DNA from: Isurus oxyrinchus
Lineage: Eukaryota
Assembly (NCBI GenBank): GCA_026770705.1
Contig: JANJGN010000035.1
Location: 13,144,001-13,208,000 of the forward strand
Length of the DNA: 64,000 nucleotides
Direction of reading: 5' to 3'
Below are positions 4,699-31,966 of the stretch, one piece after another (position 1 is the stretch's first letter; the number at the start of each line of letters is the position of its first letter). Made by a program: the position numbers and the translations under genes. The notes under the pieces are model-generated. The model worked only from the letters and a program-made list of their open reading frames with translations, did not search any database and was not told the origin of the DNA.

Positions 4699-4717
4699 TA
4701 TATATATATATATATAT
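4699..4717. repeat. (TA)n microsatellite
   Basis: Run of TATATATATATATATATA. Confidence 0.8.
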
Positions 4718-7700: not shown

Positions 7701-7938
7701 ACCTATTTCTCTTCATACTGTCAGACATTAGATGCCTCTTTTGTTCAGTCAAACACACACACAAATGAACTAATTATTCCTCAGTCCAATAATCATATCA
7801 AACATCTGATTTTTGCTCAGTTCAAATAATTCAGTAAGCATTAAATTAATTTTCAGCACAGCAGATCCTTCGAATCTCTAATTATTTTGCAGTCCAGTCT
7901 GTTTCTAAATGTTGCACAGTGCAACACTCATTGTAAAT

Positions 7939-8107
7939 AAAAGCAAAAAACTGCGGATGCTGGAAATCCAAAACAAAAACAAAAATACCTGGAAAAACTC
8001 AGCAGGTCTGGCAGCATCTGCGGAGAGGAACACAGTTAACGTTTCGAGTCGGTATGACTCTTCAATAGAACTAAGTAAAAATAGAAAAGAGGTGAAATAT
8101 AAGCTTC
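7939..8107 (-). mobile_element. Solo 3'-terminal (pLTR) fragment of a Penelope-like element, sister subfamily
   Basis: Reverse complement of the same terminal sequence as 10840-11000 (CTGCGGATGCTGGAAATCC...CTCAGCAGGTCTGGCAGCATC) but with different internal sequence; flanked by TGTAAAT at 7932-7938 and 8108-8114. Confidence 0.8.
8034..8072 (-). ncRNA. Degenerate minimal type I hammerhead ribozyme motif
   Basis: Minus strand AGUU-CUAUUGA-A-GAGUC-AUACC-GACUC-GAAA-CG-UU-AACU; stems I and II pair, core mutated. Confidence 0.5.
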
Positions 8108-8218
8108 TGTAAATGTCTAATTATTGTTTAGGCCACGGCTAACAGTTTATATCTCATACAAAAACAGAATTACCTGGAAAAACTCAGCAGGTCTGGCAGC
8201 ATCGGCGGAGAAAAAAAG

Positions 8219-8257
8219 AGTTGACGTTTCGAGTCCTCATGATCCTTCGACAGAACT
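8219..8257 (-). ncRNA. Minimal hammerhead ribozyme motif in the inverted pLTR
   Basis: AGUU-CUGUCGA-A-GGAUC-AUGAG-GACUC-GAAA-CG-UC-AACU; one stem II mismatch. Confidence 0.6.
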
Positions 8258-8338
8258 TGAGTTCGAGTCCAAGAAAAAGTTGATTCACTTGTATTCACTA
8301 TACCCCCTGACCTTCCCCTCTCCGATGCTGAATGTTCA

Positions 8339-10483
8339 GTGCTCAGCAAAGGACTTAGTTTCATACCCTTACGCCCTCACCTCAATGAATTTCGGGCTCG
8401 GCATGATACTGAACTCTTCTTCCGCCGTCTTCGTCTCCGGGCTCACTTCTTTGGGCAGGAGTCCTCTCCCAGTTCAACGGATCCTTTTACCCATCTCCAA
8501 TATTCTCCCTCCACCTGGACCCCTCCCTCTGGATTCTTACCTTCTCTTGATCTTTTCATTGAGAACTGTCGGCGTGACATTAGTCATCTCAATTTCTCTG
8601 CTCCTCTCACCCATTCTAACCTGTCTCTCTCTGAACTTACTGCACTCCATTCTCTCAGGTCCAACCCTGACATTGTCATCAAACCCACTGACAAGGGTGG
8701 TGCTGTTGTTGTCTGGCGCACTGACCTCTGCCTCGCGGATGCTGAGCGTCAACTCGCAGACACTTCCTCCTACCTCTCCCTGGACCATGACCCCATCACT
8801 GAACATCAAGCCATTGTTTCCAGGACTGTCACTGACCTCATCTCCTCTGGGGATCTCCCTCCCACAGCTTCCAATCTGATAGTCACCCAACCTCGGACGG
8901 CCCGCTTCTATCTCCTACCCAAAATCCACAGACAGAACTGCCCCGGTAGACCGATCGTCTCAGCTTGCTCCTGCCCCACAGAACTCATTTCTCGTTATCT
9001 TGACTCCCTTCTCTCTCCCCTTGTCCAGTCCCTTCCCACCTACATCCGTGATTCCTCTGACACCTTACGTCACAACAATAATTTCCAGTTCCCTGGCCCC
9101 AACTGCTTCCTCTTCACCATGGACGTCCAATCCCTCTACACCTCCATCCCCCACCAGGATGGTCTGAGGGCCCTTAGCTTCTTCCTCGAACAGAGGCCCG
9201 AACAATCCCCATCCACTACTACTCTCCTCCGTCTGGCTGAACTTGTTCTCACGCTGAACAATTTCTCCTTCAACTCCTCTCACTTCCTCCAAATAAAAGG
9301 TGTGGCTATGGGTACCCACATGGGCCCCAGCTATGCCTGTCTCTTTATGGGGTATGTGGAACATTCCTTGTTGCAGTCCTACTCCGGCCCCCTTCCACAA
9401 CTTTTTCTCCGGTACATCGATGATTACTTTGGTGCCGCTTCAAGATCTTGTCGGGACTTGGAAAAATTTATTAATTTTGCTTCCAATCTCCACCCCTCCA
9501 TCATTTTCATGTGGTCCATCTCTGACACTTCCCTTCCCTTCCTTGACCTCTCTGTCTCAATCTCTGGTGATAGACTGTCCACCAATATCCATTACAAACC
9601 CACCGACTCCCACAGCTACCTCGACTACAGCTCCTCACACCCCGCTTCCTGTAAGGACTCCATCCCATTCTCCCAGTTCCTTCACCTTCGTCGCATCTGT
9701 TCCGATGATGCTACCTTCAAAAACGGTTCCTCTGACATGTCCTCCTTCTTCCTAAACCAAGGTTTTCCACCCACGGTCGTTGACAGGGCCCTCAACCATG
9801 TCCGGCCCATCTCCCGCGCATCCGCCCTCACGCCTTCTCCTCCCTCCCAGAAACATGATAGGGTCCCCTTTGTCCTCACTTATCACCCCACCAGCCTCCG
9901 CATTCAAAGGATCATCCTCCGCCATTTCCGCCAACACCAGCATGATGCCACCACCAAACACATCTTCCCTTCACCCCCCTTATCGGCATTCCGTAGGGAT
10001 CGCTCCCTCCGGGACACCCTGGTCCAGTCCTCCATCACCCCCTACTCCTCAACCTCCTCCTATGGCACCACCCCATGCCAACACAAAAGATGTAACACCT
10101 GCCCCTTCACTTCCTCTCTCCTCACCGTCCAAGGGCCCAAACATTCCTTTCAAGTGAAGCAGCATTTCACTTGCATTTCCCCCAACTTAGTCTATTGCAT
10201 TCGTTGCTCCCCATGTGGTCTCCTCTACATTGGAGAGACCAAACGTAAACTGGGCGACCGCTTTGCAGAACACCTACGGTCTGTCTGCAAGAATGACCCA
10301 AACCTCCCTGTCGCTGGCCATTTTAACACTCCACCCTGCTCTCTTGCCCACATGTCTGTCCTTGGCTTGCTGCATTGTTCCAGTGAAGCCCAACGCAAAC
10401 TGGAGGAACAACACCTCATCTTCCGACTAGGCACCTTACAGCCTTCCGGACTGAATATTGAATTCAACAACTTTAGGTCGTGA
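8339..10483 (+). CDS. Penelope-like element reverse transcriptase + GIY-YIG endonuclease (714 aa, N-terminally truncated)
   Basis: Motifs DKGG, FYLLPKIH, GRPIVS, MDVQSLYTSIP, GVAMG, RYIDD, LPFLD, YKPTDSHSYL; linker CxxxxCxxC; VYCIRCSPCGLLYIGET...RFAEH...GLN. The frame continues upstream to ~8291 (VFTIPPDLPLSDAE) with no ATG; the GTG start is nominal. Confidence 0.95.
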   Translation: MLSKGLSFIPLRPHLNEFRARHDTELFFRRLRLRAHFFGQESSPSSTDPFTHLQYSPSTWTPPSGFLPSLDLFIENCRRDISHLNFSAPLTHSNLSLSELTALHSLRSNPDIVIKPTDKGGAVVVWRTDLCLADAERQLADTSSYLSLDHDPITEHQAIVSRTVTDLISSGDLPPTASNLIVTQPRTARFYLLPKIHRQNCPGRPIVSACSCPTELISRYLDSLLSPLVQSLPTYIRDSSDTLRHNNNFQFPGPNCFLFTMDVQSLYTSIPHQDGLRALSFFLEQRPEQSPSTTTLLRLAELVLTLNNFSFNSSHFLQIKGVAMGTHMGPSYACLFMGYVEHSLLQSYSGPLPQLFLRYIDDYFGAASRSCRDLEKFINFASNLHPSIIFMWSISDTSLPFLDLSVSISGDRLSTNIHYKPTDSHSYLDYSSSHPASCKDSIPFSQFLHLRRICSDDATFKNGSSDMSSFFLNQGFPPTVVDRALNHVRPISRASALTPSPPSQKHDRVPFVLTYHPTSLRIQRIILRHFRQHQHDATTKHIFPSPPLSAFRRDRSLRDTLVQSSITPYSSTSSYGTTPCQHKRCNTCPFTSSLLTVQGPKHSFQVKQHFTCISPNLVYCIRCSPCGLLYIGETKRKLGDRFAEHLRSVCKNDPNLPVAGHFNTPPCSLAHMSVLGLLHCSSEAQRKLEEQHLIFRLGTLQPSGLNIEFNNFRS

Positions 10484-10864
10484 GCTCCCTCCCCCATTCC
10501 CACCCCATTTCTGTTTCCCCCTTTCCTTTTTTTCCAATAAATTATATAGATTTTTCTTTTCCCACCTATTTCCATTATTTTTAAATATTTTAAAATCTTT
10601 TATGCTCTCCCCACCCCCATTAGAGCTATACCTTGAGTGCCCTACCATCCATTCTTAATTAGCACATTCGTTTGGATAATATCACCAACTTTAACTTTAA
10701 CACCTATGTGTTCTATTGTACCATTGTTGTTGACATCTTTTGATGATCTGCTTCTATCACTGCTTGTTTGTCCACACAACCACCTCTCTCTCTATCTCTC
10801 CGCCCCCCACACACACACACCTTAAACCAGCTTATATTTCAACTTTTTCTTGGACTCGAACTCA

Positions 10865-10903
10865 AGTTCTGTCGAAGCGTCATGAGGACTCGAAACGTCA
10901 ACT
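10865..10903 (+). ncRNA. Minimal type I hammerhead ribozyme motif in the 3' pLTR
   Basis: AGUU-CUGUCGA-A-GCGUC-AUGAG-GACUC-GAAA-CG-UC^AACU; predicted cut after C10899. PLE pLTRs are known to carry such minimal hammerheads. Confidence 0.65.
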
Positions 10904-12989
10904 CTTTTCTTCTCCGCCGATGCTGCCAGACCTGCTGAGTTTTTCCAGGTAATTCTGTTTTTGTTTTGGATTTCCAGCATCCGCAGTTTTTTTGTTTTAT
11001 ATTAGTTTATATCTCATTATGGCTGGCTCACTGGAACATATCAAATTATTGTTCAGTTGAATGGACACATTTAAGATTTAAGTTTGATTAGTTCAAATAT
11101 CACCGTAAAATCTAATTATATTTCACTCCACTAATCGAAGGAAAAGCTCATTCCAATAACCACCCCAAATATGTAAATATTAAAGGTGCAAAAAGCATCA
11201 AAATTGTCTGATTATTTTTCAATAGGAACATTAAATGTCTGATTGTTCTAAGTCCCATATTCTAATTGGGATATCCAAATACCATTCACTCCACTTAATA
11301 GGGTAAATTCCAAATAATGGTCAGGCCCAATTGATGATTTGAAGATTCACTTATTGTATCATTGCTTAATCACATGAAAAGCTACTCAGCTTTTCCAATA
11401 TATTTCTCAGAGTTATTAGCACAGTATTATTGCACATAAGTGGATCACATAATCAAATAAAATCAATTTGAATCTGCTTAACATCAAGTCCAATCAAGTT
11501 TATTTCTAATTATTGTTTGGACAATGATCAAGCAAAGTATTGTTCCAACAGTCCACAACAAACATGGAAGGACTAATAATTACTCAATCAAAATAACTTT
11601 TAAATTGTGGTCAGTGGAATAATGACGCTGATTACCAAAAACCTCTCAGTCAAATTGTCATGATAAATGTCTGATTGCTTCTGGGTCATTTAAATGCAAT
11701 TAATATCCAATAAGTTCCTCAGTCCAGTAATCACCATGAATGTCTAATTATTACTCACTCCAACAATTGCACCAAAAATACTTGATTGTTAATTGCCCTA
11801 ACTACAGCAAATACCAATTGTTACCAGTGCATTCCTCTATCAAATGACTTAATTATGTTTCACCTCATTACTGCTATTAATGTTCATAGATTTCCTTTCC
11901 AATGATCACATGAAATTTGTAAATATTATTTGCACTGACACTGATGTTAATTTGAGATATGGACAGTAGAAACATTTATCATGCCATATTTGTTTATTTG
12001 AATTATCACAATTATTTAGTACTTAACGTCCAGTGAAATAATCACACAGAAAAATCAAATTATTTGTTAATGCCATGAATACACTTTATTTTAAATTATT
12101 GTTCAGTCTGCTAATTGCAGTAAATATCGAGTTCCTGGCAACTTAATTTTTTTGGAAAATATATTAATATTGTTCCCTACAATAAAGAGAGGAAATGCCT
12201 GATTACTTTTCAATGCATGCATCCCATTAAAGATATTTCCATTGTCAATGCACTAATGAAAGTAAATTTTGAATAGTTTTTACACTTTGAAGACATCCAA
12301 ATAATTGTCCATTTGAACAAAAAATTATATTTTTGTTATTGACATTGAAATAAGAATAAGATATTCTATGAGAGTGAATTTCATTTTTAGTACAATGAAA
12401 AGCGTTATCATATATTAGCATTAAGTTTAATAATCAGAATTTATACAAAATTATCTTTATTCTTTTCAAGACTTAGAGACTATCAACTGCATGTTCATTC
12501 CAATAATCACAGTAACAATTATTTGAAATTCATATGATTTAAATGGTGAATAGTAGATTAAACTTTTGTGCTAATAGATAAGCAATTAATTAGTATTGGA
12601 CACTTGTATTTGTGAGTAGATAATTAGATCTTTTCTAATCTGTTGTCCCTCCTCTGTATAGGATGGAAAATCAGTGCTAGCCATTGTGATTAATCGAATA
12701 ATCTATAGTTGGATATTGGAATTGTTTATTGGACTTGGTAATTATTTCAAATGTGTTCTAATGACTGAACTGAGTAAATTTGAACATATATTTAGATTAT
12801 AGTGCAGAAAGCAATTAGCTATTCAGTGTAAGTCTTGAAGTAAAAATAAAAAATAGTTATCTTTTCAGCCATTTGGGTCTAATAATAATGAAATATTCAC
12901 ACTGTTTCTTAAAATGAACATGGGAACGACTTTTGCTGATTCTTTGTCTGGAAATTAATTAATCATGTTTTAAGGTGACAATTGACCTG

Positions 12990-13255
12990 TCTTTCTAACT
13001 TTAAGATCTGTTTGGGACTGTTACCGTATAAGGGATTGTACTTGAGAGTCAGGTTAGATAGGAATTTTAGTATTCAAAATAAAATTAAGTAATTGGAATC
13101 TTACCTATGTGTTGGACGTCTTTTCTTTTGTTAAATAAATATTCTAATTTATTTATTTTTTTACATCTCTTAAGGTCTTGTGGACGTATTGCTTCTGAAT
13201 TCAATTCAAGTGTCCCTCGTCGATTTGATCTGCCAGACACACACCATCTGCCACA
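12990..13255. mobile_element. Non-satellite insertion, possibly an LTR 3' fragment
   Basis: 36-bp periodicity is lost; contains AATAAA; coincides with a jump in higher-order repeat register. Confidence 0.35.
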
Positions 13256-16200
13256 TCATTTCAAATGCTGTTATTGAAATGAATAACTGAATATTTTAAG
13301 GTGTTTACGACCAATGGTAATTAGGAATTTGTTGTAATTATTGTACTGAACATTGAAACATCATTTGCTGTGATTGGAAAATAATTATATTTTACTTCGA
13401 TAATGGAACTGTACAAAATTTTCATTTTAAATTTGTTCACTGGACAGAGCTGTAGTTGGAACGTTCCAAAGAATCTGGAAACAGTTATAATTGACACACA
13501 GTGCTTTTATTGGCCTGAGCAATAATTGGAAAATTACTGTGATTATTGAATTTAACAATATTTAGTATCAAACTCTAATTATTTTCTGTATAATAATTAG
13601 ACACACTGCATTTATCAATGGTAGTAAACTTATATAATTATTGAACATGCTAAACTCAGGAAATGCTGAATTATTACCACTGAATCCACTTCAAAAGGAT
13701 CTCGTTATTGCTCACTGAACTAATCTATTGTTTGCCTTTACAAAAACCACATGGATTCGTACCACAATCAGCAGTATCCACTGCCAGTTCTAAGTTCCTA
13801 GAGTATTTCTAATTATTCAGTTTAGTAACAAAAACATAAAGTCCAAGTCTTGCTTCTTCCGATGATTAGCATAAAGCTTAATTACTTTCCTACCAGGGAT
13901 TAAAGTAAACATCTTTTAAATGTTTAAATCAGAAATCAGAAGGAATATCTAATTATATTATTAGTTAAACATACTCTTAAAAAATCTAATTTAATTTCAC
14001 ATCAATATTAAAATTAGATACATAATTTTGATTAGTCTATTAATCTAACCATATATATAAAAAATTAGTTCAGTTGGATTATAAAATCAAATTTTGAATT
14101 ATTGCAAGTCTATTAAACAATTCTAACACCCACTCTTGATTTCTGCATTATTCATAGTGAGTATCTGCTTATTGTTCAGTCTCATACAGCTAGGAAAAAT
14201 GATACTCATTTAGTGCGGTAAAGGCAGCAAATATGTACTTATTATTCACCCAATATTTATTGTTAGTTTCTAATGACAGGTTAGATAGCAATCACACAAA
14301 TATAACTATGGCTCAATCCAATAATGACAGCAAATATGGAAATTCCCGCAGTCCAATAAAACCTTGGATGCATTAATTCCCTGCTGCTTGTAATCAGGAT
14401 AGTAAATACCTAAGTAAATATCAGTGGATAATCATAGTACATACCGAACATTTTCCAATTCAGAAATCACTGCAAGTGTCTACTTATTTATGGCACTATA
14501 AATACAATCGATTAATTTCATTGCAATAATCAGAGAAAATATATAATTATTTGCCCAGATCAATAATCACCATCATTTTCAAAGATTGCTCTTCCACTAA
14601 TTGAAACAAAGATATTTAATTCAGTAGTCCTCTAATCACAGCTAATATGGAAATTGTAGGAGGTGAAAGCTCTTTGTTAACTTTAATACCAGCACTCAAT
14701 ATCAATTTATTATCTTCCTAGTTATAAAATAAAATGTTGACAATTCTTATGAATCATATCTTTTCTAAAATGAAATTGATTTAGTAATCTTGCTCAGTAT
14801 AATTAAACCAGTAAATACCACATCATTGATTTGTTTAATAATCCGAGTAAATTTATAATCTGCTCAGATCAAAATAGTTGGAAACATCGATGATAATTCA
14901 GTACAACAAACACAGTAAATGTCTAATATTTCATCAAAGGAAAATGTAAACATATCTGAAATTTTTCAGTGCAATGATAACACAAAAATAACCTAATTAT
15001 TCTTCTGTCCAATAACCATAGTAAACATCTGAATATTGCGCAGTTCAAATAACTCAGTAAACATTGAATTAATGTTCAGCACAGTAAAACCTAAATTATT
15101 TTTTTGTCCAATACTTACAGATTATTTCCAAACGTTGCTCTGTCCGATAATCACTGTAAATGCCTAATTATTGTTCAGGCTGCCACTAGTAGTAGATATC
15201 TCATTATTGCCAGTCCATATTCTTGGTAAGTTTTTAATTATTATTTGGTTCGGTAAACAATGTTATGATCTAAGTTTTGCCAGGTTCAATTGTCATCATA
15301 GAATCTAATAATATTTCACTCCAGTGTCGAAAGAAATGTTCAGCCCAATAATTACCCCAAATATCTAAATAATATTAGTCCAAAAAGCATTGAAGATATC
15401 TAATTATATTTCAATACAAGCATTCATTATCTAATTATTTAAGTCCCATATTCTAACTGTATATCCAAATGCCATTCACTCCACTTGATAGAGTAAATTT
15501 CAAATAATTGTCACTCCCAATCAATAAGATGGAAAATCATTTATTGTATCATTGACTAATCACTGTGAAAATCTGTTTTTTTCAGCAAAATGCTGAGGCA
15601 TGTCACTACATTATTATTGAACATCAAGAGAGCAAATAACAAATTCAATTTCAATCTACTCATCATCAGGCCCCCCCAAAAAAGTTCTAAGTTTTGTCCA
15701 GATGATAATCAAAAGAAATATGTGTTGTTCTTTTGAATGCTCTCAGTACATGTGGACATTTCGAGAGCCAAACAAAAAACAAAAAAGGACTAATAATTGT
15801 TATGTTCCCTGACCACAGCGAATGCAAGATTGTTACCAGTGCAATATTATTTCAAATGATTTAACTATGTTTCACCCCGCTATTACCATTAAATATTGAT
15901 AGTTTTCCTTTCCAATAATCTCAAAGAATGTCAAAATATTGTTTGCTCTAATACTGTCATTAATTTAAGATTTTTTTACACAGTCAAAACATTTAGCGGA
16001 ACCTTTTTGTTCATTCCAATGATCACAATGCACAAAAACTTATTGTCTGGTCAAATAATCAAGCAGAAACATCAAATTACTTTTCACTGCCATAAACACA
16101 GTTTGTTTAAAATTCACTTTGTTAATGACAGTAAATCTCCAATTCCTTCCAGTCTTTATTTTTTTGGAAAGAATCTTAATATTGTTCTTTCCTGTAATTG

Positions 16201-17467
16201 GAGGAAAGGTCTGAATACTTTTCAATGCATGAACCCCACAAAAGATATTTTTAATTTTCAATCCACCAATTAATGTGAATTACTAATACCTATCATTAAA
16301 AACAGTGAAATTATCCAAATAACAACTTAATCAAATACTGTATGTACTGTTCACATTGCAATGAACTCACAATATTTATGTTATTCTGTCTATATGTGTG
16401 ATTTTCATCATTTCACGATGTAAAACTGCATCCTATGATATTATTACTAATTTTAATAACCATAATAAATATCAAATTCTCCTTTTCTTCTGTTCAAGAC
16501 ACACATTGAGTACCTACTTATTGATCATTGTAATTATCAGAGCAGCAAATATGTGAAATTCGAATGATTTAAACAGTGAACAATAGGTTTAAATTGTGTG
16601 ATTGTTAGAACACAATAAATAGATATTCAACAGCTGTATTTGTGGGAAAATAATATATTTTCTAAGAATTTTCTACTGGAAACTATGATATTTTCTGTCA
16701 TTAGAGAACAGAACAGCTAAATATTGTTGCTGAAATTAATGAGCTCAGAAACAATTGCACACTTATGCTGATAATTTGGCTGAATAAAGTTAGATCTTTG
16801 CTCTGATTAATTCATGGAAAAATGTTTGAATACTAATTGTATTTCAAGGACCTAAAAGTATTAATATTCACTGTGATTTTTCGATTAAAAATTAATTAAA
16901 CCACTGGCCTTAAGTCAGAAATGTACTGTGAGGATTACACAGAATGATAATTAATCACTACATGTTTTTAATTAGACTTTAAAAATGTACACGTTTATTC
17001 TGATTATTCAATTTAATGACAATTATATCTACATTGATTATTATCTGAAAAATACTTAGAAGTGCACTGTAAGTACTGGACTTAGTATATGGTTCCAACC
17101 ATTATTAGTTTGAAAATCTAATGATAACTTGCTGTGTATATTTGTTACAATATCCAGGTGTCAATACTTTGCATTAGGCTGAAAATTCGATAGATTATCA
17201 ATTCAACGAAATAACAACTGGATGTAACATTTGATTACTAGACTTGGTAATAAATGGAAATTTCTACTGATAATTGTACTGAATAATATTTCAACATGCA
17301 TTTAGATTAGTAGACTAAAAACTTTTAGATGCTTAAACATAATTTTGGTGCTAAAATAAATCATTATTTTCAAGGTGTTCTGATTAATAAAAATTCTATG
17401 CTTGTAGCCATCACTGGACAAAAAAATATATCCGAATTATGCCGTTCTAAACAAATGTTCCTCATAC

Positions 17468-17793
17468 ACTGCGGCTGCAAGCCCTAGCCACCCTTAGTGC
17501 TTCCTCCAAGTGGTGCAAGTGGTGGGTAGTACGTGGTAGTCAGCAGGAAGTGTCCTTGCCCATGTTTGACTTAATTCCATGAGATTTCATGGCGTTGGTT
17601 TCGATGTGGATGACTCCCAGAGCAGCTCGTTCTCGACTGTGACGCCACCTCTGCTGGGTCTGTAATTCAAGTGAGACAGGACATACCAGGGATAGTGATG
17701 GTGGTGTCTGTGAGATAGTCATACTCACAGAGCCATACCTTACAGACAATAGCAGGCTGTTGCTTGACGCGTCTGTGAGAAAACTCTCTCAAA
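17468..17793 (-). mobile_element. LINE (CR1-group) endonuclease fragment, decayed
   Basis: GC-richer island; minus-strand peptides SHRRVKQQP, DTTITIPG, RPSRGG, ALGVIHI, VKHGQGHFLLTTTY resemble an AP-endonuclease N-terminus. Confidence 0.7.
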
Positions 17794-20700
17794 TGAGAAA
17801 GAAAAAAGATGTGTAATGCTTGTACTGAAGTAAAAGATAATCTGATATTTTGAAGGCGTTTTGGACTGATAGTAATTCGGAATTTATTGTAATTATTAGA
17901 ATAAACGTTCACACATCTGTGTGTTTCAGCGACTGAAAAACAAGTGGATTTTGCTTTCATAATGGGGATAAACAATATTTTCATTTGAAATTTGTTCATT
18001 GGAGAGAACGGCAATCAGAAATTTCTGTAGAAACTGGAACCAATTATAATTTGATCCTTATTGGTGTTATTAGCCTGAACAATAATTAGAAAAACAACTG
18101 ATTATTATACTCTGCAATATTTGCCATCAAACGCTGATTATAGTCTGTATAATAATTCAGCACCACTGCATTTATTCAAATGTACAGAAACCATCACAGA
18201 AAATACCTGAATGATCAGTGAAATACTCAAACTAAATATCTAAGAATTGTTAATTAAGGAATAACATTTAATATCTAATTACTTCATACACTTTAAATGA
18301 AATACTAGCTAAAACATTTTTCAGTGCGCTTGTTCCATAAGATCTCTATTTTTTAGTACAATTATCACAATAAATGTCTAAATATTGCTCAGTACGTCAA
18401 CTGTAGTGAACTAATTTCATTGTCCAATACGCTAATCACAGGAAATGCAGAATTATTACCAGTGAATCCACTCCGAAACAATTTCATTGCTGTTCACTTC
18501 AATACCAGCAGAAAAGATCGACTGATAGCGTTTTCGACAATCGCACAAATTCAGAGCACAAATGGCAGGATCCATTGCCAGTTCCAAGTTCCGGAATATT
18601 TCAAATTATTGTTCAGCTCAGTAAGAAAACTAGAAAGTTCAAGTATTGCTTCTTCCGATTATCATCATAAAGTGTAATTATTTTCCTAGCAGGAATTGCA
18701 GTAATGTTCAGGTCAAAGAAAGAAAATCTAACTGTGTTATTCGTCAAAGCACTTAATATATCTAATTCCTTTTACCTTCAATTATAATGTTAAATATCTA
18801 ATTGCTTTTAGCCCATTACTCTAACCATATGTCAACATTTAGTTCAGTTGGGTTATCAAATCAAATTTTGAATTATTGAAAGTCCAATAAAAAAAAAATC
18901 TAATATCCATTATTGTTTTCTACGTTAATCATGGTGAGTATCTGCTCATTGTTCAGCCTGATACAGATAGGGAAACTCAATAAACTCATTTAGTGTAATA
19001 ACAGGGTAAATATCTACCTATTACTCAGCCCAATAATTACAGTTGATTTCTAATTGTGACAACAATAACACAAATATAACTATTGTTCCATCAAAAAATA
19101 GCTTGCGGCCGTCCAGTAAAACGTTGAAGGTATTAATTTCTTGTTCCATGTAAGCAGCATAGTGAATATCTAAGAAAATATAATTGGATATGGTAAATAC
19201 CTTAAAAATTGCAATTGAGGAATCACTGCAAGTATCTAATTATTTTGTCACTATAAATACAATCGGCATTTAATCAATTTCAATGTAATACCCAGAGTAC
19301 ATATATCATAATTTGCACAGTTCAATAATCACCATAAATTTTCAACAATTACGGCTCCACTAATTAAGTGAAGAGATTTAATTCGGCAACATACTAACAC
19401 TCGCTAATATGGCAATAGTATGAGCTCAAATCTCTTTATTAACCTCAACACTAACATTAAATATCCATTTGTCGTTTTCTTCCTTATTATCAAACCAATG
19501 GTCAAACAATCATATGAATAATTTATTTCTTCACATGATATGAATTTAATATTCTTGCTGAGTACAATAATACCAGTAAGTATCAAATTATTGTGTTGTT
19601 CAATAATCAGAGTGAAATTAAAATCTGGACAGATCCAAGCACTTGGAAACATCTACGCTTGTTCAGTCCAATAATCACAGTAGACATCCAATATCTATTC
19701 TATCAAAGGATCAACGGAAACACATCTGTTTTTTTTCAATTCAATAATGACAATGAATATCTAAGTGTTATGAGTCCACTGGGCTTGGAATACCTTACAT
19801 GTTTTAATAAATACACTTAAATACATGCTTTTAACATGCTATTCACTATCATTTCAGTTATCACACATTAATCACACAATTTTAAATATTCCAGTTGACA
19901 AATATAGTAACTTTCAAATTATTGTTTAATGGAACTGAAACCGGTAACATACCAATATCTCTTCATTATGTGGTAACAATAGAAGTCTCTTCTTTGCAGT
20001 GAAATACACGAACAAATGAGCTAACTATTCTTCACTTCTGTCATCATGGTAGACTGATTATTGCTCACTTCAATTAACTCATTAAACATTGAATTATTGT
20101 TCAGCCCATTAAAGTTTTCGAATTTGGGATTATTTTTCAGGCTAATGCGCGCAGTTTTTTTCCTAAATGTTGCTCAGCCCAAAAATTACTGTAAATGTTT
20201 AATTATTGTTTACACTACTACTAGCAGTGTATACCTGATTATTGTTGGATAACTTTCTTGGAAAACGTCTAATTGTTGTTTGCCTGTGTAAACAAATTGA
20301 GATCTACGTTTTGCTTAGTTCAATTATCATTGTAAAATGTATTTTACTCCAGTATGGAAGGAAAAGCTAAGTCCACTAATTACACCAAATATCTAAATAT
20401 TATTGGTCCAATATCATTGAATATATCTGATTACTTTTCAATAGAAACGTTAAATGTCTAATTGTTATCAGTCCCATTATATAAGTGCATATCAAAGTAC
20501 AGTTTACTCCACTTAAAAGAGAAAATTTGAAATAATTGTGATGTCCAATCAACAATTCGATCATTTTCTAATTGTCTCGTTGATTAATCACAGCAAAACC
20601 TATTTATCTTTCAGCACATTGCTGAGAGTTCTCATCATCTCATTACTGCTCATAAATGCAGCAAAGAACCAACTCTACTTGACTCTACTTATCATCAAGT

Positions 20701-23700
20701 GCTATCAAGTTTTCTTTCTAATTATTGTTTAGTAAATAATCAAACGACATTTACGTCTTGCTCATAATAAATGCTCACAATAACTATGCAGAATTTCGAC
20801 CTTCCAAAAAAACTTGGGGCTAAGTATTGTTCCATGCAGTCAATATGATAAATATTTAAATTGTGATCAGTAGAATAATCATGTTGATTACCCAAGCCTT
20901 CTCAATCGAAATATCACTGCAAATATCTAATTGCTTCTTGCTCATTTAAGTGCAATGACATTTTAATAATTTATTCTGTCCAGTAATCACCATGAATGTC
21001 TAATTGACACTCACTCTAATAATTGTACCAATATTATTTAATTGCTAATTGGGCTAACCACAGGAAATGCCCAATGTTACCAGTGGAATACACTTCCAAA
21101 TGATTTAGTTACTATAAAATAGCGATATATTTCCTATCCAGTAATCACATGAAATGTCTAAACATTGTTTGCACTAACGATTATGTTCAGTTCAATTTTT
21201 TTTTTTACGGACAGTAACAACATTTAACATGCCATTGTTGTTTATGTCCGGAATCACAGTACACAAGTATTTATTGTCCAGTCAAAGAATCATACAGAAG
21301 CATCAAAATATTTTTTCAGTATCATAAACACAGAACATTTAAAATTATTGTTCAGTTTGTTAACCACGGTTTAGCATCAAATTCCTGCCAGACTTTTTTT
21401 TGAAATCATCTTAATATCGCTCTTTCCGAGAATCAGAGGAAAGTTCTGATTACTTTTCAATGCATGCATCCCACTGAAGATATTTTCCATTTTCAATACA
21501 CTAATGAAGGAGAATTTCTAATAGTTAACAGCACTAACATTTTGAAAACTTTCAAATAAATGTTCAATTGAATACATTGCACTAATTGTTCAACTGACAT
21601 TATAATAAGCAGACAATATTCTTTTCATTATTCTGTCTAGCACAGTGAATTTCATTTTTAGTACAACAAAAAATGTTATCCAACGAATTTGGTGTTTAAT
21701 AATCGCAATAGATGCCATTTTCTTTTCACTTCAAGACATATTAAGACTATCTACTTATTGTTCATTCCAATAATCACAGTGACACTTATTTTGAATTCAA
21801 AATATTTAAACGGTGAACAGTAGATTAAAATTTGTTGAGAGCAGGTAAGCAATTAATAGATATTCAACATTCCATTCAAGTGGAGGCAATTCGATCTTTT
21901 CTAAGGCTTTTCCATTTGAACTCATACAATATTCTCTCTGGTGATGGGACAGAACAATTAAATATTTTTGCTGCAATAAATGAACTTAGAAATAATTACA
22001 CATTTATAGTTATAATTAAGTTAAAAAAAGATATTTGATCTGGATATTTCATCAAAAATGATTTGAATACTAATTGTATTTCAAGGACCCAAAACTAATA
22101 AACATTTACTGTGATCTTTCGATTGAACATTATATGATTCTACTGGCCTTAAGTCAGAAATGTGCTGTGATGATTACAAAGAATTATAATTAATCATTTC
22201 AATTAGGCTTTCGAAGTTTAAAAGTTCACTCTTATTATTGGGTTTAATTCCAAATGTATCTACATTGATAATGATCTGAATGATTCTTAGAAATGAAGTG
22301 TAAGTACGGGACATAGTACATGCTTCCATCCCTTAATACTTTGGAAAGAAAAGGAAAATTCCCTGTGTTTATGTTAATACTTTGTACTGAACATTTAGTA
22401 ACTTATCAATGTGAATATTCAATGAAATGCTAAGCAAATATTACATTTGTTTATTAGACTTGGCGATAAATGGGATTTTCTACTGATGAATGGACTGAAC
22501 ATTATTTGAACATTCAGTTAGATTAGTCGATTTAAACATTTAGCGGTTAAAACTTATTTTTAACATTAAAATAATTGGTTATTTTCAAAGTGATCTGATT
22601 AATAATAGCAGTACATTTGTAACTTTTATTGGACAAAAAGTAAAAACATATTTTTGGTGTTCCCAAATTGAACAAATGTTCAACCTTTAATGTAATTATC
22701 AGAGCAGGCAATACTAGATATTCCTAAGAATTTAGAACTGTCTGGGCTTCTATAATTTCTCTGATTATTCATCTAAACAAAGATGAGATGTAGATAGCTT
22801 TTATCATACCGAGCAACGGCATGAAATGCATTTGATTTTTACAAGATTAAGATATTTTGTGTAGTTATTGGAAAGTCATTAGAGAGGTGATTAACGTTTG
22901 TTTTAAAGTGAAAAATAATTTGATATTTTCAGAGAAGTTGCCCTGATAACAAATCGATATAAGCGGTAATTTTTAAATTAAAGAAATTAACAGCTTTACT
23001 GCAATTGATAGACTGAGTATTAATCATGCATTTATGATAATTATTGGAGAGAATAAATTATTAGATATCTACTCTGTTTATTGGACTGAAAAAATGATAA
23101 ATTCTGATTGTGCTTATAGGACCAAAAATAGTCACTTAATAATCCTTAGACATATACTAGGATTATTCTAATCATAATTTAAGTACTTAATGTGGTAATT
23201 ACACAGAAGAAGTAATTACTTTTTCATGCATTTATTGGACTGCCAAAATTCACATATTTGCTGCAATTAGTTGTTTGAAGAATAATTATTGTCTGAACTG
23301 TAATTTGAAACTTACAGCATTTATTGGACTGCATATTGACTGCATTTCTGCAGTTGGGAATAATTTAATTATAACGTCTCCTCTCTGTAAAGGGCTGAAA
23401 ATCAGTGCTAGTCACTGTGATTAATCAGGTAACCAATAATTGGATCTTAGAATTGTTTATTGGATTTATTAATTATTTGAAATGTGTTCTAATGACTGGA
23501 CTGAATTATATTTGGACATTTGCTAAGTTTATAGTGCTGAAAAGATTTAGCTATCTGGTTTAAGTGTTGAAACAAAAAAAAAAACATTAGTTATCTTCTC
23601 AATCATTCTGGACAAATAATACCTTGATATTCACTCTGTTTCTTGAAATGATCATGTGGAAGACTTTTACTGTGATTCGTGTTCTGGAAAATAATCATGT

Positions 23701-26700
23701 TTCAAGGTCACAGTTAGCTTAACCAGGATTTGGGCTTTATATTTGTTTATTGAACAATAATTAGAACTTGCCCAATAATTTCAAACAGGTAATGATTAGG
23801 AATATACCGATATCAGTGGGCTGAACAACAGTTACCAATTTATTGTGATGATTGGTTTGTAAATTATTCAGAAACAAACCATAATAAGTTGCTGAACAAC
23901 AGTTAGACATTTTCCACAAGGATTAGACTGAACACTTTTTCATCTTGAGCAGCAATCAGTTATTTATTGTGAGAATTTGAATGAAAAACAATGAGATGTT
24001 CTTTCGTATAGTGGAAACAAATATTTACTGCTGTTTACTGACAAGTTTGTGGTTAATCAGAAAATTGAAATTATGTATTATTGATGGAGTGAAGTTGTAA
24101 ACATATAATTTGAGTATAGGAAGGCAATACATCTATATCTAAATTAGTAATTCTTATACTATCATTAGATATTTTGAAAGAGATTTTGAGGGATAAGGAA
24201 ACATTCACCCTGGACTGAAAAATGAAAATATAGTTGGAAGACGCAGAGATATAAAAAAAAGATAATGCTTTAAATTAACAGTGATTATGGTGTTGAAAAA
24301 TAATGATATAATTCTTTATTTTGATTGGACTGGAGAATAATAAAGTATGTGCTGTGATCAATGTTCTGAAAATAATGGTATGCAAAATGCTTTTATTGTC
24401 CTTAACAATAATATGAGTGATACATAATGATTTGAAAAAACAATAAATGTGAATATTATAAAGAAAATCAATAGATGTTTAGTGTTTGAACAGAATGAGC
24501 AATACTTAGATATTTGGAATGAGGAGTGCACTAATAATAATTTGACAGCTGCTGTGCCTAAGAGACTGACCGAATAATTAGGTTTAATGCAATTCAAATG
24601 CTGAGCACAATATACACCTTCTATGTTGATTATTGGACTGAAATGGTGATGGTGCTTATTGTTTCATTATTGCACTAAAAAATGATTAAACACGAAGCAG
24701 TAGAAATTAAACATGACGTTTCAATGGAAAGATCTCAGATATTTACTGTGGTTATTCAACAGATCATTATTTAGATTCTTTAATGTGATGACTACATGGA
24801 AAATAAATAACTTGTTCCATGTTATTATTAGACATTTGAAACTTACATATTGCCTGATTATTTGATTGAACCATCATTATATTTGCTTTGACTATCTTCT
24901 GATCAATAATGAGGAATAAAATGCAATTATTGGGTGAAATAATATGCATATTTACAGGCTTTAATTTATTGACAAATGATTTTTTGCCTGCTGCATTTGG
25001 TTAGATCATTTGAAGCAAAAAATTAAAGGATTTAAAATCAGCATTGGTGTGAAAATTAATTATATATTCCCAAAGAGCTTATTGCTAATAATAACAGGAA
25101 ATTGCTTGCATTATTGCACTAAAAATTGGAAGGCCATTTACTGCGATTCAAGGAATGACAAATAATTAGGTTTTGTGTAGAAAACCTGACTTATATAAAT
25201 GCTTGTACTGGCCTAAATAATTAGTGAAATTCTAATATTTTAGGAATGGTAACAATTAGAAACATAATGTTATTTGTGGCATGACAATAAATATAAATTT
25301 CCTGTGATCTTGCTACCGGTCAATATTTAGAATATTTCCAAGAACGTAGGATTGGCAAGGAGATCAAAATCAATCAAATTGTTGTTCTAAATAATTTTGG
25401 GATTTTAACACGTTTTATTGCACTAAGCTATTTGAAATTCAAATGGTATTTAGAATGAAAAACGTTTTATGTATTAATGGGAAAGAAAATTATTTGACCT
25501 TTATTGTGATCATTGAATTAAACAATACTGGGGGTTTTAACTTTTTTTATTGTACTCAGCAGTTATTTGTAATTCATATGATTTTTGAATGAAATAAATT
25601 TATACATTTCTTTTGCTTAATGGAAGGATAATGATTTGATGTTTAATGTTATTAAAATGGACATTAATTTTGATACTTTCAGGGAGGTTTGTAATTATTA
25701 GATTCACATTAAACAGATATTTCCTGTTGGCATTTAGTCAGGACCACTGATCAATATTTAGAATATTTCCAAGAACGTAGGATTTGCAATTGACTGAAAT
25801 TTGAAAAGATATTTAGTAAGAGCCATGGTCAGAAAGTATCATTGCATTTTACTGTGATCATTAGAATAAACAATACTTCGAATTTACATGTGCTTTTTGT
25901 ACACAGCAATAATAACAAATGATCCAAGAATTTAACACCAGCAGTGATTAGACATGCACTGCTATTTGTGGTCTGAAGAATAAGTAGAACTTTTCTGTGA
26001 TTATTGGACTGAACAATATTCAGAAATTAACTATGTTTACTGCTCTCAAAATCAATTAAATATTCACACTTCATTGGACTAAATAATGATCAGAATTTTA
26101 CAGGGTTTATCCAACTGAAAAATGATTATATATTTGCTCTGATTATTGAGCTGAAGTATAATTTGATTATTTCTGTGTGGATGGGACTGAAAAACAGTTA
26201 GATGCTACGATTTTGCAACAAAGCAAAAATGGTATGCTACTGGTACTTATTGAAAAAATTGGGATTCACGATAATTGCTAGACAGAACAATTAAAACATT
26301 GCATGTTGACTTTAATTAGGATACAAGTATTTGTAGCTAATATACAAATTCAATTCGATGTTTTCAAAGCAGATAGGAGTCATGATAATTAGGGATTCAC
26401 CGTCATTTGCCGATTGAAAATGTATATATCTGGAGCTCATGGAGTGAACAAATGTTAATCATATTTGCTGATTATTGTCAGGCTATAAAAGTATTATTGA
26501 CAAATTATCAACTCTCAGTAATACAGTATTTACCAAAATCTTGAGCTGAGCACTATTGGGATGTTAAATCATTTTAATTGCAAGGAACAATAATTTGACA
26601 TCCATATGAGTTTGGAACGAACAATATTTGGACGATTCCTGCAATAGTGGAAAGGCAATTGATAGATATTTAATGCTAGCATTGAAGTGAAAAGAACATT

Positions 26701-29128
26701 AGACGCATTAAAAATAATATTGAGATTTTCTTTAAAATTACTGGGCTGAACATTTAAGAAACTTCACTACCGTCGAGGGACTGAGTAATAGTTATACATT
26801 TATAGTGATTATTGGACTGAACAAATGATGAGATAATTACTTATATTGGTGCATTGAAACAATATTCAAAATTCATGTATGTATAAAGCTGAAAAAAAAT
26901 AGTTCTTTACTGATTATTTTCATATTACAACATTCAAGAATTTACTCTATTTATTACACAGATCTGAATTTAGATATTTATTGTTAAGTTTTACGGAGAG
27001 ATAATTAGCAATTTTATGCCTATATTATCGGCCGAACTTTACAAATTTACTGTGATTATTTGATTGCATAATAATCATATTAACTATCATTATTGTCTGA
27101 ACAATAATTAGAAACTAATGATAATTATTGCAGTGCATAGCATGTAGGTACTGAAGCAGTTATTGCACGGAACATGAATTTTTGCATTTTTAAATTGAAG
27201 GAAACTGATGTTTAATTTCTGTATTAGTCTGAAATATATAGCTATTCAATGTGGTCAATTAATTAAAAATAAGTGCATTATATAGTTGTTTACTGCAATC
27301 TAGCATAACTTCAAATTTTCTTTGCGAAAGGTACCATACTACATTTGAACAGGTGATTGGACTTAGATAGAAAATAACTGATTTGTGTCATTCGTATTGA
27401 CCTGGAAGGTAATCTGATATTTTGAAAGCGTTTTGGATCAATTGTAAAGACGAATTTGTTGTAATTACTGGACATAACATGGAAACATCGTTTGCTCTAT
27501 TTCTGGGACTGGAAAATAATTAGATTTTATTGTGACATTGGGGCTTAAACAATAAGAGCATTTTAAATTTGTTCATTAGGCAGAACTGTAATTATAATGT
27601 TTCAAAGAACCTGAAAGCAGTTATAGTTTGTTGCAAACTGATGTTATTGGTTTGAACAATAATTCAAAACTTGCTGTGATCATTGACATTAGCAATGTTT
27701 CATATCAAACTCTAAATATTGCATGTATAATAATTAGATACTATGGCATTTATTGAACTGCACAGAAACCAGAAATTATACTTCCCTGTAACCATCACTG
27801 GAAATATCTAAATGAGGATCAGTGGAATTCTCAAAATAAACATCTAAGAATTGCATTTGAACAACAGCATTCAATATCTAATTAATTCATATCTTTTAAA
27901 TGGAATGCAATTTCAAACATTTTAACAGCGCTTATTCCAGAAGATCTCTAGTCATTTTTTCCAGTACAATAATCATCATAAGTGCCTAGATATTGTTCAG
28001 TACATCAATTGTAGTAAACTTATTTGATTGCTCAATAAGCTAATCGCAGAAAATGCTGAATTATTACCAGTGAATTCATGTCGAAAAGATCTCATTGTTC
28101 TTCACTGCATTACTAGCAGATAAGGTGTATTGATTGTCTTTTCAACAATCACATGAATTCAGACCACAAATAGCAATATCCACTGCCAATTCCAAATTCC
28201 TGAAATGTTTCTAATTATTGTTCAGTTTGGTAAGAAAAACATAAAGCACAAGTGTTGTTTATTCCAATTATCACCATAAGGTGTAATTATTTTCCTACTG
28301 GGTATTGCATTGACTGTCTTTGAAATGTCAGGTCAAAAATCAGAACGAATATCTGACTTTGTTATTGGTTAAAAAAAAAACGTTTTTAAAAATCTAGTTC
28401 TTAGTCAAAAAAGCTGTCATAAGATCTAATTTATTTTACCTTCAATACTAACGTTAGATATCTAGTTGTTTTTGGTCCATCAGTGTAACTACATATCAAA
28501 ATGTAATTCAATTCAGTAATCAAGTATTGCATTTCCACAAGTCCAGTCAGTGCTTCTAACATCCATTATTTTCTTCATTAATCACAGTGATTACTTGTTT
28601 ATTGTTCAGTCTTAAACAAATAGGGGAAAAATAACATATATTTAGTGCAATAATGGTGGTAAAAAAGCACTTACTATTTAGCCCAATAATGACTGTTATT
28701 GTGACATCAATCACAGAAATATAACTATTCAATCCAATAATGACAGTAAACATGTAAATTCCAGCAGTCCAATAAAACATTGACTATTAATTATTTGCTT
28801 CATCTAATCAGCGTTGTACATTTCTAAGGAAATATGAGTGAATAATCATAGTAAATGCCTAAAAAAATGCCAATTAAGAAATCACTGTAAGTGTCTAATT
28901 ATTTGTGGCGTTATAAATACAATTGATGTTTAATCAGTTTCATTGCAATAATCAGAGTAAATATCAAATTGTTTGCACAGTCCAATCATCAGCATAAATT
29001 TTCAATGATTACTCTTCCATCACTTGAAGTAAAATATTCAATTCAGCAGTCCACTAATCACAGCTAATATGGTAATTTAGGAGGCTAAAACTCTTTGTTA
29101 ACTTCAACACTAACATTATATATCTCTA

Positions 29129-29356
29129 AAACAAAAACAGAATTACCTGGAAAAACTCAGCAGGTCTGGCAGCATCGGCGGAGAAGAAAAGAGTTGACGT
29201 TTCGAGTCCTCATGACCCTTCGACAGAACTCGAAGGGTCATGAGGACTCGAAACGTCAACTCTTTTCTTCTCCACCGATGCTGCCAGACCTGCTGAGTTT
29301 TTCCAGGTAATTCTGTTTCTGTTTTGGATTTCCAGCATCCGCAGTTTTGTTTTGTG
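29129..29356 (+). mobile_element. Short fold-back Penelope-derived insertion (inverted pLTR + pLTR + tail)
   Basis: ~95-bp near-perfect inverted arms around ~29226; near-identical to the ends of the 8158-11003 element; 14-bp TSD ATTATATATCTCTA (29115-29128 and 29357-29370). Confidence 0.92.
29191..29231 (-). ncRNA. Best-preserved minimal hammerhead motif in the window
   Basis: GAGUU-CUGUCGA-A-GGGUC-AUGAG-GACUC-GAAA-CG-UC-AACUC; 5-bp stem I and 5-bp stem II fully paired. Confidence 0.65.
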
Positions 29357-29609
29357 ATTATATATCTCTATGTTTGTTTTGAATTATCAAATTGTCGAAA
29401 TCTAATATGTATCATATATTTTAACTATGATATGAATTTAATATTCTTGTTCAGTGCAATAATGCCAGTAAATATCACATCATCGTTTCTTTTTAAAATC
29501 CGTGTAAATTTAGAACCTTTTCCGATCAAAATACTCAGAAACATCTACGACTGTTCAGTCCAATAATCACAGTCAAGAGCTAATATTTGTCCCATCAAAG
29601 GAAAATGAT

Positions 29610-29955
29610 TAGAAATCTTCTGGGATATGGCACCCTGAAAATATTTCAAATTGTTTTACTTTTAAAGGGTATGAAATAATTAGATGTTAAATGTTGTTGT
29701 TCAATTGGCAATTCTTAGATATGTACTTTAAGAATTCCACTGATCACCATTTAGATACTTGCTGTGATGGTTACACAGAAGTATAGTATCTGGTTTCTGT
29801 ACAGTTCAGTAAATGGAGTTGTTTCTAATTATTATACAGACAATAATTGGAGTTTCATACCAAACATTGCTAATGTCAATGATCACAGTATATTTCTAAT
29901 TATTGTTCAGCCCAATAACACCAGTTGCAACAAACTATAACTAGTTCCATATTCT
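29610..29955 (-). repeat. Short inverted copy of ~27605-27950
   Basis: CTGGTTTCTGTACAGTTCAGTAAATG is the reverse complement of CATTTATTGAACTGCACAGAAACCAG; TTGCAACAAACTATAACT matches AGTTATAGTTTGTTGCAA. Confidence 0.8.
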
Positions 29956-31725
29956 GATTGATTTTCAGTGCAATAATAACAATAAATATCTAAATATTAT
30001 GATTTGAAGGGGCTTGGAAAATATGACATACATTTAAATATATATTTGAATTCAATTCTTGAACATCCATTATCATTCTTTATTATAACATTCATTATCA
30101 CTGCCATACTCGCACGGCATTTTAACAATTTAGGTTGACAACCCTTTCAAATTGTTGTTTAATTGAAGCAAAACTGGTATCCCTTCATTCTCTAGGAACA
30201 TTAGGTGTCCGCTTTTTTTAATGAAATACACACACAAGTGACATAATTATTCTTCAGTCCAATAATCATCATAAACGTCTGATTATTGCTCGGTTCAATT
30301 AAGTCAGCAATGTTGTTCATCCCACTAAACCCTTAGAATCTCCAATTATTTTTCAGTTCAGTGCTCACAGACTTTTATCTAAATGTTGCTCAGTCCAATA
30401 ATCACTGTAAATGTCTAATTATTGTTTAGACCACTGCTACCAGTCAGATGACTGGATGTCAAGCCTAGTAGATTTATGTTACATCCACTTATTATTTCGT
30501 GGATAATCACATTGATGATCCACTGAATGTTGAGTCCAAAGCAAAGTATGGAGATCAGATTATTGTTGTGTACAGACACAGCAAATTAGCATTTCATTTT
30601 CAAATCAGTAACAGCTGGAACCATTTACTAAGTCCAATACATACACTCCATTTCTAAGTATTATTCAGATAATGATCATTATAGACATATTGGAAATTTC
30701 TAATTACAGTTCTGTACAATGAACACATTTAAAATGCAAGCATTGTTTAGCCCCATTATCACATTAAAATCTCATTATTTTCCAGTCCCAGAAACACAGC
30801 AAATGATATTTCAATGTTAAGTCCAATGATTACAACAAATTCCTCATTAACGTTGCTCCAAAACACCTTCAAATTATCAGATTATCTTTCAGTTCAATAA
30901 CAATGTCATATACCAATTATTTTCTTCCTTAGTCCAATCACCTGTTCAAATGTAGTTTGTTCCATTTCACAGAGCAAATTTCAAGTTATTATGAATTACA
31001 ATAAACAACTATATAATGCATATATTCTTAGTTACTTGATCAAATCGAATAGCTTTTTGAGAATAACAGTGATTAAACATCAGATTCTTCCAAATTAAAA
31101 TGTATCAATTCTTCAATGCAATAGCTGCTTAAGTATCTCCATATTATGCATGGCAATAATTACAATTAGTTTTAATTATTTTTCAGACGATAATGGTAAT
31201 TAACGTGATTATTATAAAACAGAATAATCACAGTAAAATATGTAAAATTCGGCTGGCTGATAAAGGTAACAAATAGCTAATTATTTTTCAGATAAGCTTT
31301 ACAGTAAATATCGTAATTTGGATTTGTGTACCAAATAGAGTAACTTCCTGAATGGTGTAATTTGAAAACAATCAATAAAGGCGTAAATATTTTTCAGCCT
31401 TATACGTACATGAACTATTAATATTTTTTCAATGCACCCATAATCACTATAAATGTCAATCCTTCGATGGTAAAGTTTCTTAAAATAAATCTCAATAATA
31501 TTTTTAAATCATTCATTAACTGTTCACCTCAAAGATCTCTTCATTTCCTATGCACTATCGCAGGAATTGTCCAAGTATTGTTCATTCCATACTCAAACGA
31601 ATTTCAAATTATTGATCCTTGCAATAAAAAAGGCTTAACATCCCACTGTTGTTAAGCTCAATATTTTAGTAACTGTTTTATTACTGGGAGTTGATAATTC
31701 TTCGATATATTTGAAAACTTGTATA

Positions 31726-31966
31726 AAGAAAAGCAAAAGACAGCGGAAGCTGGAAATCTGAAACAAAAATAAATGTAGCTCGAAAAACCCAGCAGGCCTG
31801 ACAGCAGCTGCGCAGAGGAATACAGTTAACGTGTCCAGTCCGTATGACTCTTCAACAGAACAGTTCTTATGAAGAGTCATACGGAGTCGAAACGTTAACT
31901 GTATTCCTGACCGCAGATGCTGTCAGTCATGCTGAATTTTCCATCTATTTTTATATTTGTTTCTGA
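31726..31966 (-). mobile_element. Older fold-back Penelope-derived insertion with two opposed hammerhead remnants
   Basis: Imperfect inverted arms centred ~31860; plus-strand CAGUU-CUUAUGA-A-GAGUC-AUACG-GAGUC-GAAACGUU-AACUG (31861-31901); absent from the paralogous arm at ~26470-26520. Confidence 0.85.

Follow-up and report, generated by a model that had tools for sequence, protein, structure and literature searches.

PLEs that carry an endonuclease (EN+ PLEs) and belong to the Neptune clade are defined by a CX2-5CxxC linker between the reverse transcriptase (RT) and the endonuclease, and the accessible part of PMC8557442 gives this linker as absent from Penelope/Poseidon. Neptune elements are biased toward insertion into microsatellites, with the linker proposed as mediator (PMC8557442, same portion). 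The element described here is like them in its single ORF with RT and C-terminal GIY-YIG domains, its CX2-5CxxC linker and CCHH motif, its 5′ truncation, its inverted pLTR arm and its tail at one end, which is 30-40 bp long in Neptune. It differs in its target sites: for Neptune, the excerpts of that source describe a bias toward microsatellites, in which target site duplications (TSDs) can often not be read, whereas here the sites are 14-mers outside microsatellites, within a complex satellite and with 19 bp of common context.

For PAc, a Poseidon element of Anolis carolinensis, the available text of PMC11167929 describes a protein that cuts as well as extends the two strands and has a preference for ATT within AT-rich DNA. 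Its reverse transcription starts at two internal sites bracketing the tail, a dimer is predicted, and nicking of its own pLTR or of other AT-rich DNA has been proposed. In contrast to the present element, PAc belongs to the Penelope/Poseidon clade and has no linker. The motif reported in that text is just ATT, with no fixed nick spacing, and the predicted dimer interface lies mostly in an N-terminal region that is missing from our copy A. Penelope families of Adineta vaga (PMC3846280, seen in part) are similar in having an inverted pLTR, clean TSDs, a TATA-like pLTR box and microhomology at 5′ joins, and their tail measures 31 bp. They differ in that their TSDs are 8, 9 or 10 bp long or absent within one genome, and the portion available names no common target motif. 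Family-specific preference within repeated sequence, a further likeness, is found in Chlamys at (C)n/(CA)n, Naiad at (TA)n and the spike-moss EN-minus PLE-X in 28S rDNA, but there the targeted sequence is a simple repeat or rDNA, and the domain orders are other than here (PMC8557442 and PMC9977147, partial texts).

The preferences described for EN+ PLEs are short ones: ATT, AT-rich DNA or microsatellites. In the passages available, the choice of targets by EN+ PLEs and the building of tandem and inverted structures are stated as open (PMC8557442, PMC11167929, PMC2377424), and PLE tandem formation is left unexplained (PMC2377424). The accessible parts of PMC12910113, PMC8969392 and PMC8869645 add nothing on targets, and a literature search with most subscription papers and Repbase reports outside its reach yielded, for Neptune elements, neither a TSD of fixed length nor an extended motif. 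We analyzed a window, i.e., the whole stretch of 64,000 nucleotides of Isurus oxyrinchus DNA, in which two young PLE copies lie in a degenerate satellite. With its clean TSDs, intact endonuclease frame and candidate 19-bp site, this young family allows direct tests of the nick geometry and of what the linker zinc finger does; if generic bias is all there is, the two copies are an ordinary pair of PLE insertions.

A young subfamily of an element with Neptune features

The following features make up the two young copies, A and B.

8158..8283, minus strand: inverted pLTR arm of copy A, without tail, 123/126 identical to the 3′ arm
8284..11003, plus strand: body of copy A, a 5′-truncated Neptune-type PLE, with an open frame to the stop at 10483
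10076..10102, plus strand: CX4CxxC linker between RT and endonuclease (C598, C603, C606), nearly invariant in the alignment
10187..10480, plus strand: GIY-YIG endonuclease with CCHH motif and R, H, E and N catalytic positions, from Pfam and alignment motifs
10965..11003, plus strand: tail of copy A, 39 nt, at the 3′ end only, with both edges in a repeated U-rich motif
29129..29356, plus strand: copy B, a head-to-head mini copy, with inverted arm 29129-29233, forward arm 29230-29356 and 34-nt tail 29323-29356

The first-pass annotation had assigned the element to the PLEs with a GIY-YIG endonuclease, and this holds: a single ORF encodes a PLE-type RT and, C-terminally, a GIY-YIG domain with intact motifs. 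Pfam returned RVT_1 at E=1.6e-7 and GIY-YIG at E=7e-4, the latter below the curated cut-off. Homologs amounted to 736 of the 8000 scored candidates, many annotated as RVT_1 and some as GIY-YIG; among named proteins, the nearest (66-71% identity) belong to cartilaginous fishes. Residues C641, H663, H679, R659, E708 and N724 are nearly invariant in an alignment of 21 sequences, and the second Cys is present in the query. The frame of copy A comprises 732 aa counted from 8285, compared with 890-930 aa for many full-length relatives, which shows that the copy is 5′-truncated. A search for solved-structure relatives of the alignment found 0 among 177635 sequences. In bacterial and archaeal contigs, the 22-nt pLTR pattern occurred in 0 stretches, and none of the 62 pattern hits of a protein scan was confirmed.

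The linker excludes Penelope/Poseidon, and the available part of bioRxiv 10.64898/2026.07.22.740005 reports Neptune and Poseidon as the only two detected in vertebrates. Taken together, linker and vertebrate distribution point to Neptune as the clade, for which the structure and domain content of the element are ordinary. The pLTR features of EN+ PLEs are present as well: an inverted, 5′-truncated arm (126 bp in A), which in copy A starts at the upstream inferred RT start, and a tail at one end (39 nt in A, 34 nt in B). The inverted and forward arms of copy B are identical to the 3′ arm of A at 103/105 and 121/126 positions, and the inverted ends of the two copies begin at most 2-3 nt apart. 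Judged by arm identities of 96-98%, A and B are one young subfamily.

No Rfam match to the hammerhead family was obtained in 7000-33000, where two sub-threshold miRNA matches reflected hairpins, and the predicted fold of 10855-11003 was no more stable than shuffles (z -0.55). By eye, the region near 10869-10895 contains a candidate variant-core hammerhead motif. A splice-donor-like CAG|GTAATT at 10943-10952 follows an ATG in the hammerhead-like pLTR loop of A and B, and C is similar; by eye, it may belong to a PLE intron.

Matching 14-bp duplications at two independent insertions

The duplicated target sites of the young copies are as follows.

8144..8157, plus strand: left TSD of copy A, exact 14-bp repeat, monomer positions 11-24
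11004..11017, plus strand: right TSD of copy A, exact 14-bp repeat
29115..29128, plus strand: left TSD of copy B, exact 14-bp repeat, monomer positions 11-24
29357..29370, plus strand: right TSD of copy B, exact 14-bp repeat

What the first-pass annotation had reported of these sites was reproduced. Both TSDs are exact direct repeats at the positions and the 14-bp length given there, and no extension is possible on either side; that of copy B is also readable as 13 bp, because its final base fits the element sequence too. They have the common core TATATCTC at TSD positions 5-12, are equal at 10/14 positions overall and, as had been claimed, have the same orientation relative to the element. 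The common monomer phase was confirmed with reconstructed empty sites: in both, the highest score places the TSD at positions 11-24, on one and the same strand, with 17.5 bits in A and 8.0 in B, the latter right at the threshold for monomer calling. CTAAC directly to the left of both TSDs had been missed, and its inclusion brings the positions common to A and B to 15/19.

A rival account of this likeness is that B derives from A, by duplication plus deletion or by gene conversion carrying the flank. In its favor, an alignment of the left ends that takes in the TSD and 5 flank bases extends over 124 bp at 93.5%. Nevertheless, the two TSDs of each copy are identical while 4/14 positions differ between the copies, and the junctions and tails of A and B differ. 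The flanks are non-paralogous, in agreement with the earlier claim: their local alignment scores 25, whereas true paralogs reach 162 and 214, and the median among 1470 random pairs in phase is 28. These scores also led us to reject deep paralogy of the two sites. Finally, empty paralogs were found for both loci, each carrying the flank of its own site (the native flank, in the case of B), and the likeness of the two sites is therefore native to each locus. Internally identical TSD pairs that differ from each other at four positions, together with native flanks, show that the insertions were independent; a common origin by duplication or conversion is largely refuted by the empty paralogs and the non-paralogous flanks, and we regard it as highly improbable.

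Older copies of the lineage deviate in length and position

The sample had been described as two insertions. There are indeed only two clean sites, but the window contains three further, older copies of this lineage that had been overlooked.

7932..8114 including TSDs, minus strand: copy C, an older-subfamily 3′ fragment (7939-8107), 137/163 to A
7932-7938 and 8108-8114: exact 7-bp TSD of copy C, monomer positions 11-17, with an empty paralog at 30406
31724..31962, minus strand: copy D, an older head-to-head mini copy in a different phase, weakly placed near monomer position 36/1
62387..62598, plus strand: copy E, an older head-to-head mini copy outside the satellite, with no convincing TSD

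The TSD of copy C begins exactly 36 bp, or one monomer, to the left of that of copy A. Copies A, B and C, three of the four copies in the array, thus have a common left TSD edge at monomer 10|11. Copy C has no inverted arm, no TATAT core and no 14-bp duplication; its TSD of 7 bp shows that the fixed 14-bp length is not lineage-wide. A search for a TSD of copy D found none, and for copy E we rejected a 10-bp, 1-mismatch repeat located ~27 bp from the left end. TSD lengths are therefore 14 bp for each of the two young copies and 7 bp for the older C, and unreadable in D and E. Given the variation of PLE TSDs within the Adineta vaga genome, the agreement of two lengths is weak evidence. Neither do the copies keep to one position as those of a site-specific element would, with D at another phase and E outside the array.

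Copies C and A occupy adjacent monomers (7932-8157). The chance that either young copy falls at most 40 bp from the end of an older copy is ~0.7%, and the adjacency may reflect either a hot spot at this locus or the attraction of an insertion by a pLTR already present.

The satellite offers a scaffold rather than the site itself

3200..51000, also ~1-1200: degenerate 35-36-bp satellite, 633 monomer calls

We called monomers with an iterative matrix in 44.3 kb of array from which the PLE copies had been removed, reaching ~51% coverage and 633 calls, as opposed to 14-25 hits in shuffles. The satellite is arranged in alternating strand blocks and kilobase-sized paralogous macro-units of 65-80% identity; it is old and degenerate, not homogenised. 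Tandem Repeats Finder did not detect the array, and the literature search returned no description of this ~49-kb degenerate satellite with many inversions. A protein-coding origin, such as from leucine-rich repeats, was dropped because monomers are often 35 bp long and there is no long in-phase ORF.

The monomer consensus matches TSD A at 11/14 positions and TSD B at 9/14. Four of the bases common to A and B differ from the consensus, and the two that fall in the core, T5 and C12, occur together in 3/632 other monomers. At the respective phases, CTAAC is present in 3/632 and TATAT in 5/632 other monomers, while TATATCTC is present in 0/632; the commonest 8-mer at the core phase is AATATCTA, in 34 of the 632. 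The A and B sites hold short TA runs, and when we examined the microsatellite bias of Neptune, no tandem repeat was called at any PLE insertion site. The proposal that the satellite supplies the site repeatedly is thus valid for a loose scaffold, at 11 and 9/14, but not for the strict core. Two unoccupied occurrences of TATATCTC exist in the array, at 24246-24253 and 34300-34307; they are paralogs of each other, and both border a ~110-bp indel between paralogous blocks.

The first-pass annotation had also suggested a possible targeting relationship between satellite and retroelement. Under such targeting, chromatin, DNA shape or the monomer motif would recruit the element to the array and the cut would fall at a fixed phase. 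The common 10|11 edge of A, B and C is in line with this idea, as is the presence of 4/5 copies in an array where just two other insertions were noticed. Moreover, WATATYT is denser inside the array (5.7/kb) than outside (1.7/kb, in a set that includes a 1.2-kb satellite piece), and the accessible part of bioRxiv 10.64898/2026.09.17.752431 notes Penelope elements in chordate centromeric arrays. However, the array occupies ~75% of the window, and its size alone predicts 4/5 copies (P=0.63), so that the check for enrichment within the window gave a negative answer. TATATYTC is about equally dense inside (0.34/kb, A and B counted) and outside (0.31/kb). Furthermore, the occupied sites are rare variants and not consensus monomers, D is out of phase, E lies outside, and the array is old and degenerate. 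Given the lack of enrichment, the absence of the strict core from other monomers and the 7-bp TSD of copy C, the window does not support a targeting relationship, and we consider it improbable.

The likeness of the two sites probably exceeds generic AT bias

The segment in which A and B are alike had been picked post hoc; we therefore let the segment vary freely at fixed register and took its best score, using ~1 million random pairs per null. With the choice of segment so corrected, a match at the level of A and B arose at 3e-4 under a uniform null, 5e-4 for AT-rich pairs and 1e-3 for array pairs containing TATAT. Among in-phase monomers the corresponding value was 0.03-0.05. With a fixed segment, random array pairs reached 10/14 at 1.9e-3, a run of 8 at 4e-4 and 15/19 at 7e-5; AT-rich sites with ATT or AAT near the nick reached 15/19 at 2e-4. 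The phase coincidence of A and B has itself a chance of ~1 in 72. The bulk of the A/B signal is thus one phase coincidence, and the excess within the phase is borderline.

A rival account of these figures is generic PLE behavior plus luck: a liking for AT-rich DNA, ATT or (TA)n would draw insertions to the most TA-rich patch of the monomer, and the remaining match and the equal lengths would be due to chance. A bias toward AT-rich DNA and microsatellites is documented in the available portions of PMC11167929 and PMC8557442, the sample is of two, the in-phase excess is slight, and C, D and E repeat neither length nor core. In contrast, even pairs of sites that contain TATAT match as well at just 1e-3, which makes a generic AT/TA bias unlikely as a complete account. 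The fixed-segment value for AT-rich sites with ATT or AAT near the nick and the TSD edge common to 3/4 array copies also argue against it. We hold this explanation to be unlikely, albeit the strongest of the competing ones. Of the proposed target preference, the part that stands is an excess beyond generic AT bias at P of about 1e-3 for two sites, with the left TSD edge found also in the older copy C; the fixed 14-bp length, not being lineage-wide, does not. The data hold a real, better-than-chance hint of sequence preference.

A target look-alike within the pLTR

10829..10842, plus strand: internal target look-alike, 11/14 to TSD A and 9/14 to TSD B

No other segment of element A matches the two TSDs jointly as well as this one, which lies in the pLTR. 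Both non-consensus core bases are present in it, copy C retains it at 13/14 positions, and it marks the 5′ end of that copy. Its score was reached somewhere in 628 of 2000 block-shuffled elements and is unremarkable by itself. At the 5′ end of C it was reached in 9/4000 shuffles, and at any of nine copy termini on either strand in 25/4000, in a terminus test designed post hoc. The segment may instead be a TATA-like promoter box, because most mini arms start ~30-55 nt downstream of it. The short-arm 5′ termini of five copies lie in a 60-nt stretch (10829-10886), three of them at 10862-10866, ~30 nt past the TATA-like box. The mini hairpin copies may be cDNAs that ran off the 5′ end of the transcript.

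The look-alike would gain another meaning if RNA guided the choice of site, i.e., if a tandem transcript carried it just behind the tail and the nicked strand primed only where it could pair. Its resemblance to both TSDs, core bases included, its orientation, which fits pairing of a bottom-strand primer, and its coincidence with the 5′ end of copy C would all be accounted for. However, no tandem with a tail followed by the look-alike is present in the window, and the common CTAAC flank lies outside the primer. The anole element, according to the available text of PMC11167929, initiates at RNA sites non-homologous to the cut DNA. Pairing at the inverted ends involves just 3-5 bases in different registers. 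We judge RNA guidance to have little chance of being correct. Primer-RNA pairing at the inverted ends as the sole cause of the core was rejected, because it amounts to 3-5 bases in two registers.

A proposed endonuclease preference for an extended site

We propose that A and B are independent recent insertions in the same satellite phase, and that their matching 14-bp TSDs come from a GIY-YIG endonuclease that prefers an extended AT-rich site and makes nicks 14 nt apart (probability about 0.55). The likeness of the sites would then likely reflect a sequence preference of the enzyme and not a special partnership with the satellite; two clean cases are no proof. In favor of this proposal we counted the exact TSDs, the A/B likeness relative to the uniform, AT-rich and TATAT-containing nulls, the native flanks seen in empty paralogs, the off-consensus common bases, the left edge of C, the placement of the look-alike at the 5′ end of C, the intact endonuclease motifs and linker, and the precedents of the anole element and of the linker in Neptune. 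Against it we counted the small number of clean sites (two), the in-phase value of 0.03-0.05, the deviations of C, D and E, the variable TSDs of Adineta vaga, and the look-alike's unremarkable score, post hoc nature and possible identity as a promoter box.

In the proposed series of events, the endonuclease would nick the bottom strand where the TSD begins on the left (T^GTTAG in both copies) and the top strand 14 nt further right, so that 3′ overhangs remain. Reverse transcription would be primed by each 3′-OH at one of two fixed positions within the RNA that bracket the 34-39-nt tail, and head-to-head joining of the two cDNAs would yield a long body with a short arm in the case of A and a mini hairpin in that of B. 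By analogy with the portion of PMC11167929 available, both ends of A and B would be primed and the TSD length would correspond to the spacing of the two nicks. A spacing of 14 nt exceeds a short 3′ stagger by about one helical turn, which might result from two endonuclease domains acting on one face of the DNA, and the linker zinc finger is a candidate reader of the extended site. Copy C, which has no inverted arm, would have been finished in another way, which may account for its shorter TSD.

The role of the satellite would be passive. The monomer resembles the preferred site at 9-11/14, which could explain why insertions fall in one phase, and rare variants nearer to the preferred sequence would be picked. 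Less firmly, the similar site in the pLTR would serve self-insertion producing PLE tandems.

A bolder version, which we put forward tentatively as possible but doubtful, is that the Neptune subfamily is sequence-specific: a dimeric GIY-YIG endonuclease would recognize a non-palindromic site of ~19 bp and cut it with a fixed stagger of 14 nt, reverse transcription would be primed from both nicks, and a copy of the site would be kept at the pLTR edge. If so, one specificity would explain the formation of tandem pLTRs, the head-to-head mini copies and the phased insertion into the satellite.

Other features of the window

Outside the array we observed fragments of LINE endonuclease and RT and an AAT-type microsatellite (2753-3190, 51716-52183, 59900-60070), which contains no PLE copy. 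Within the array, a SINE-like insertion at 48560-48910 lies at about monomer position 30, not at 10|11; it has tRNA-like boxes by eye and an A-rich 3′ end, and ARAGORN called no tRNA in it. A GC-richer insertion at 17455-17800, probably a LINE fragment, is located at a macro-unit junction. The array seems poor in LINEs and SINEs relative to the region of 51-64 kb.
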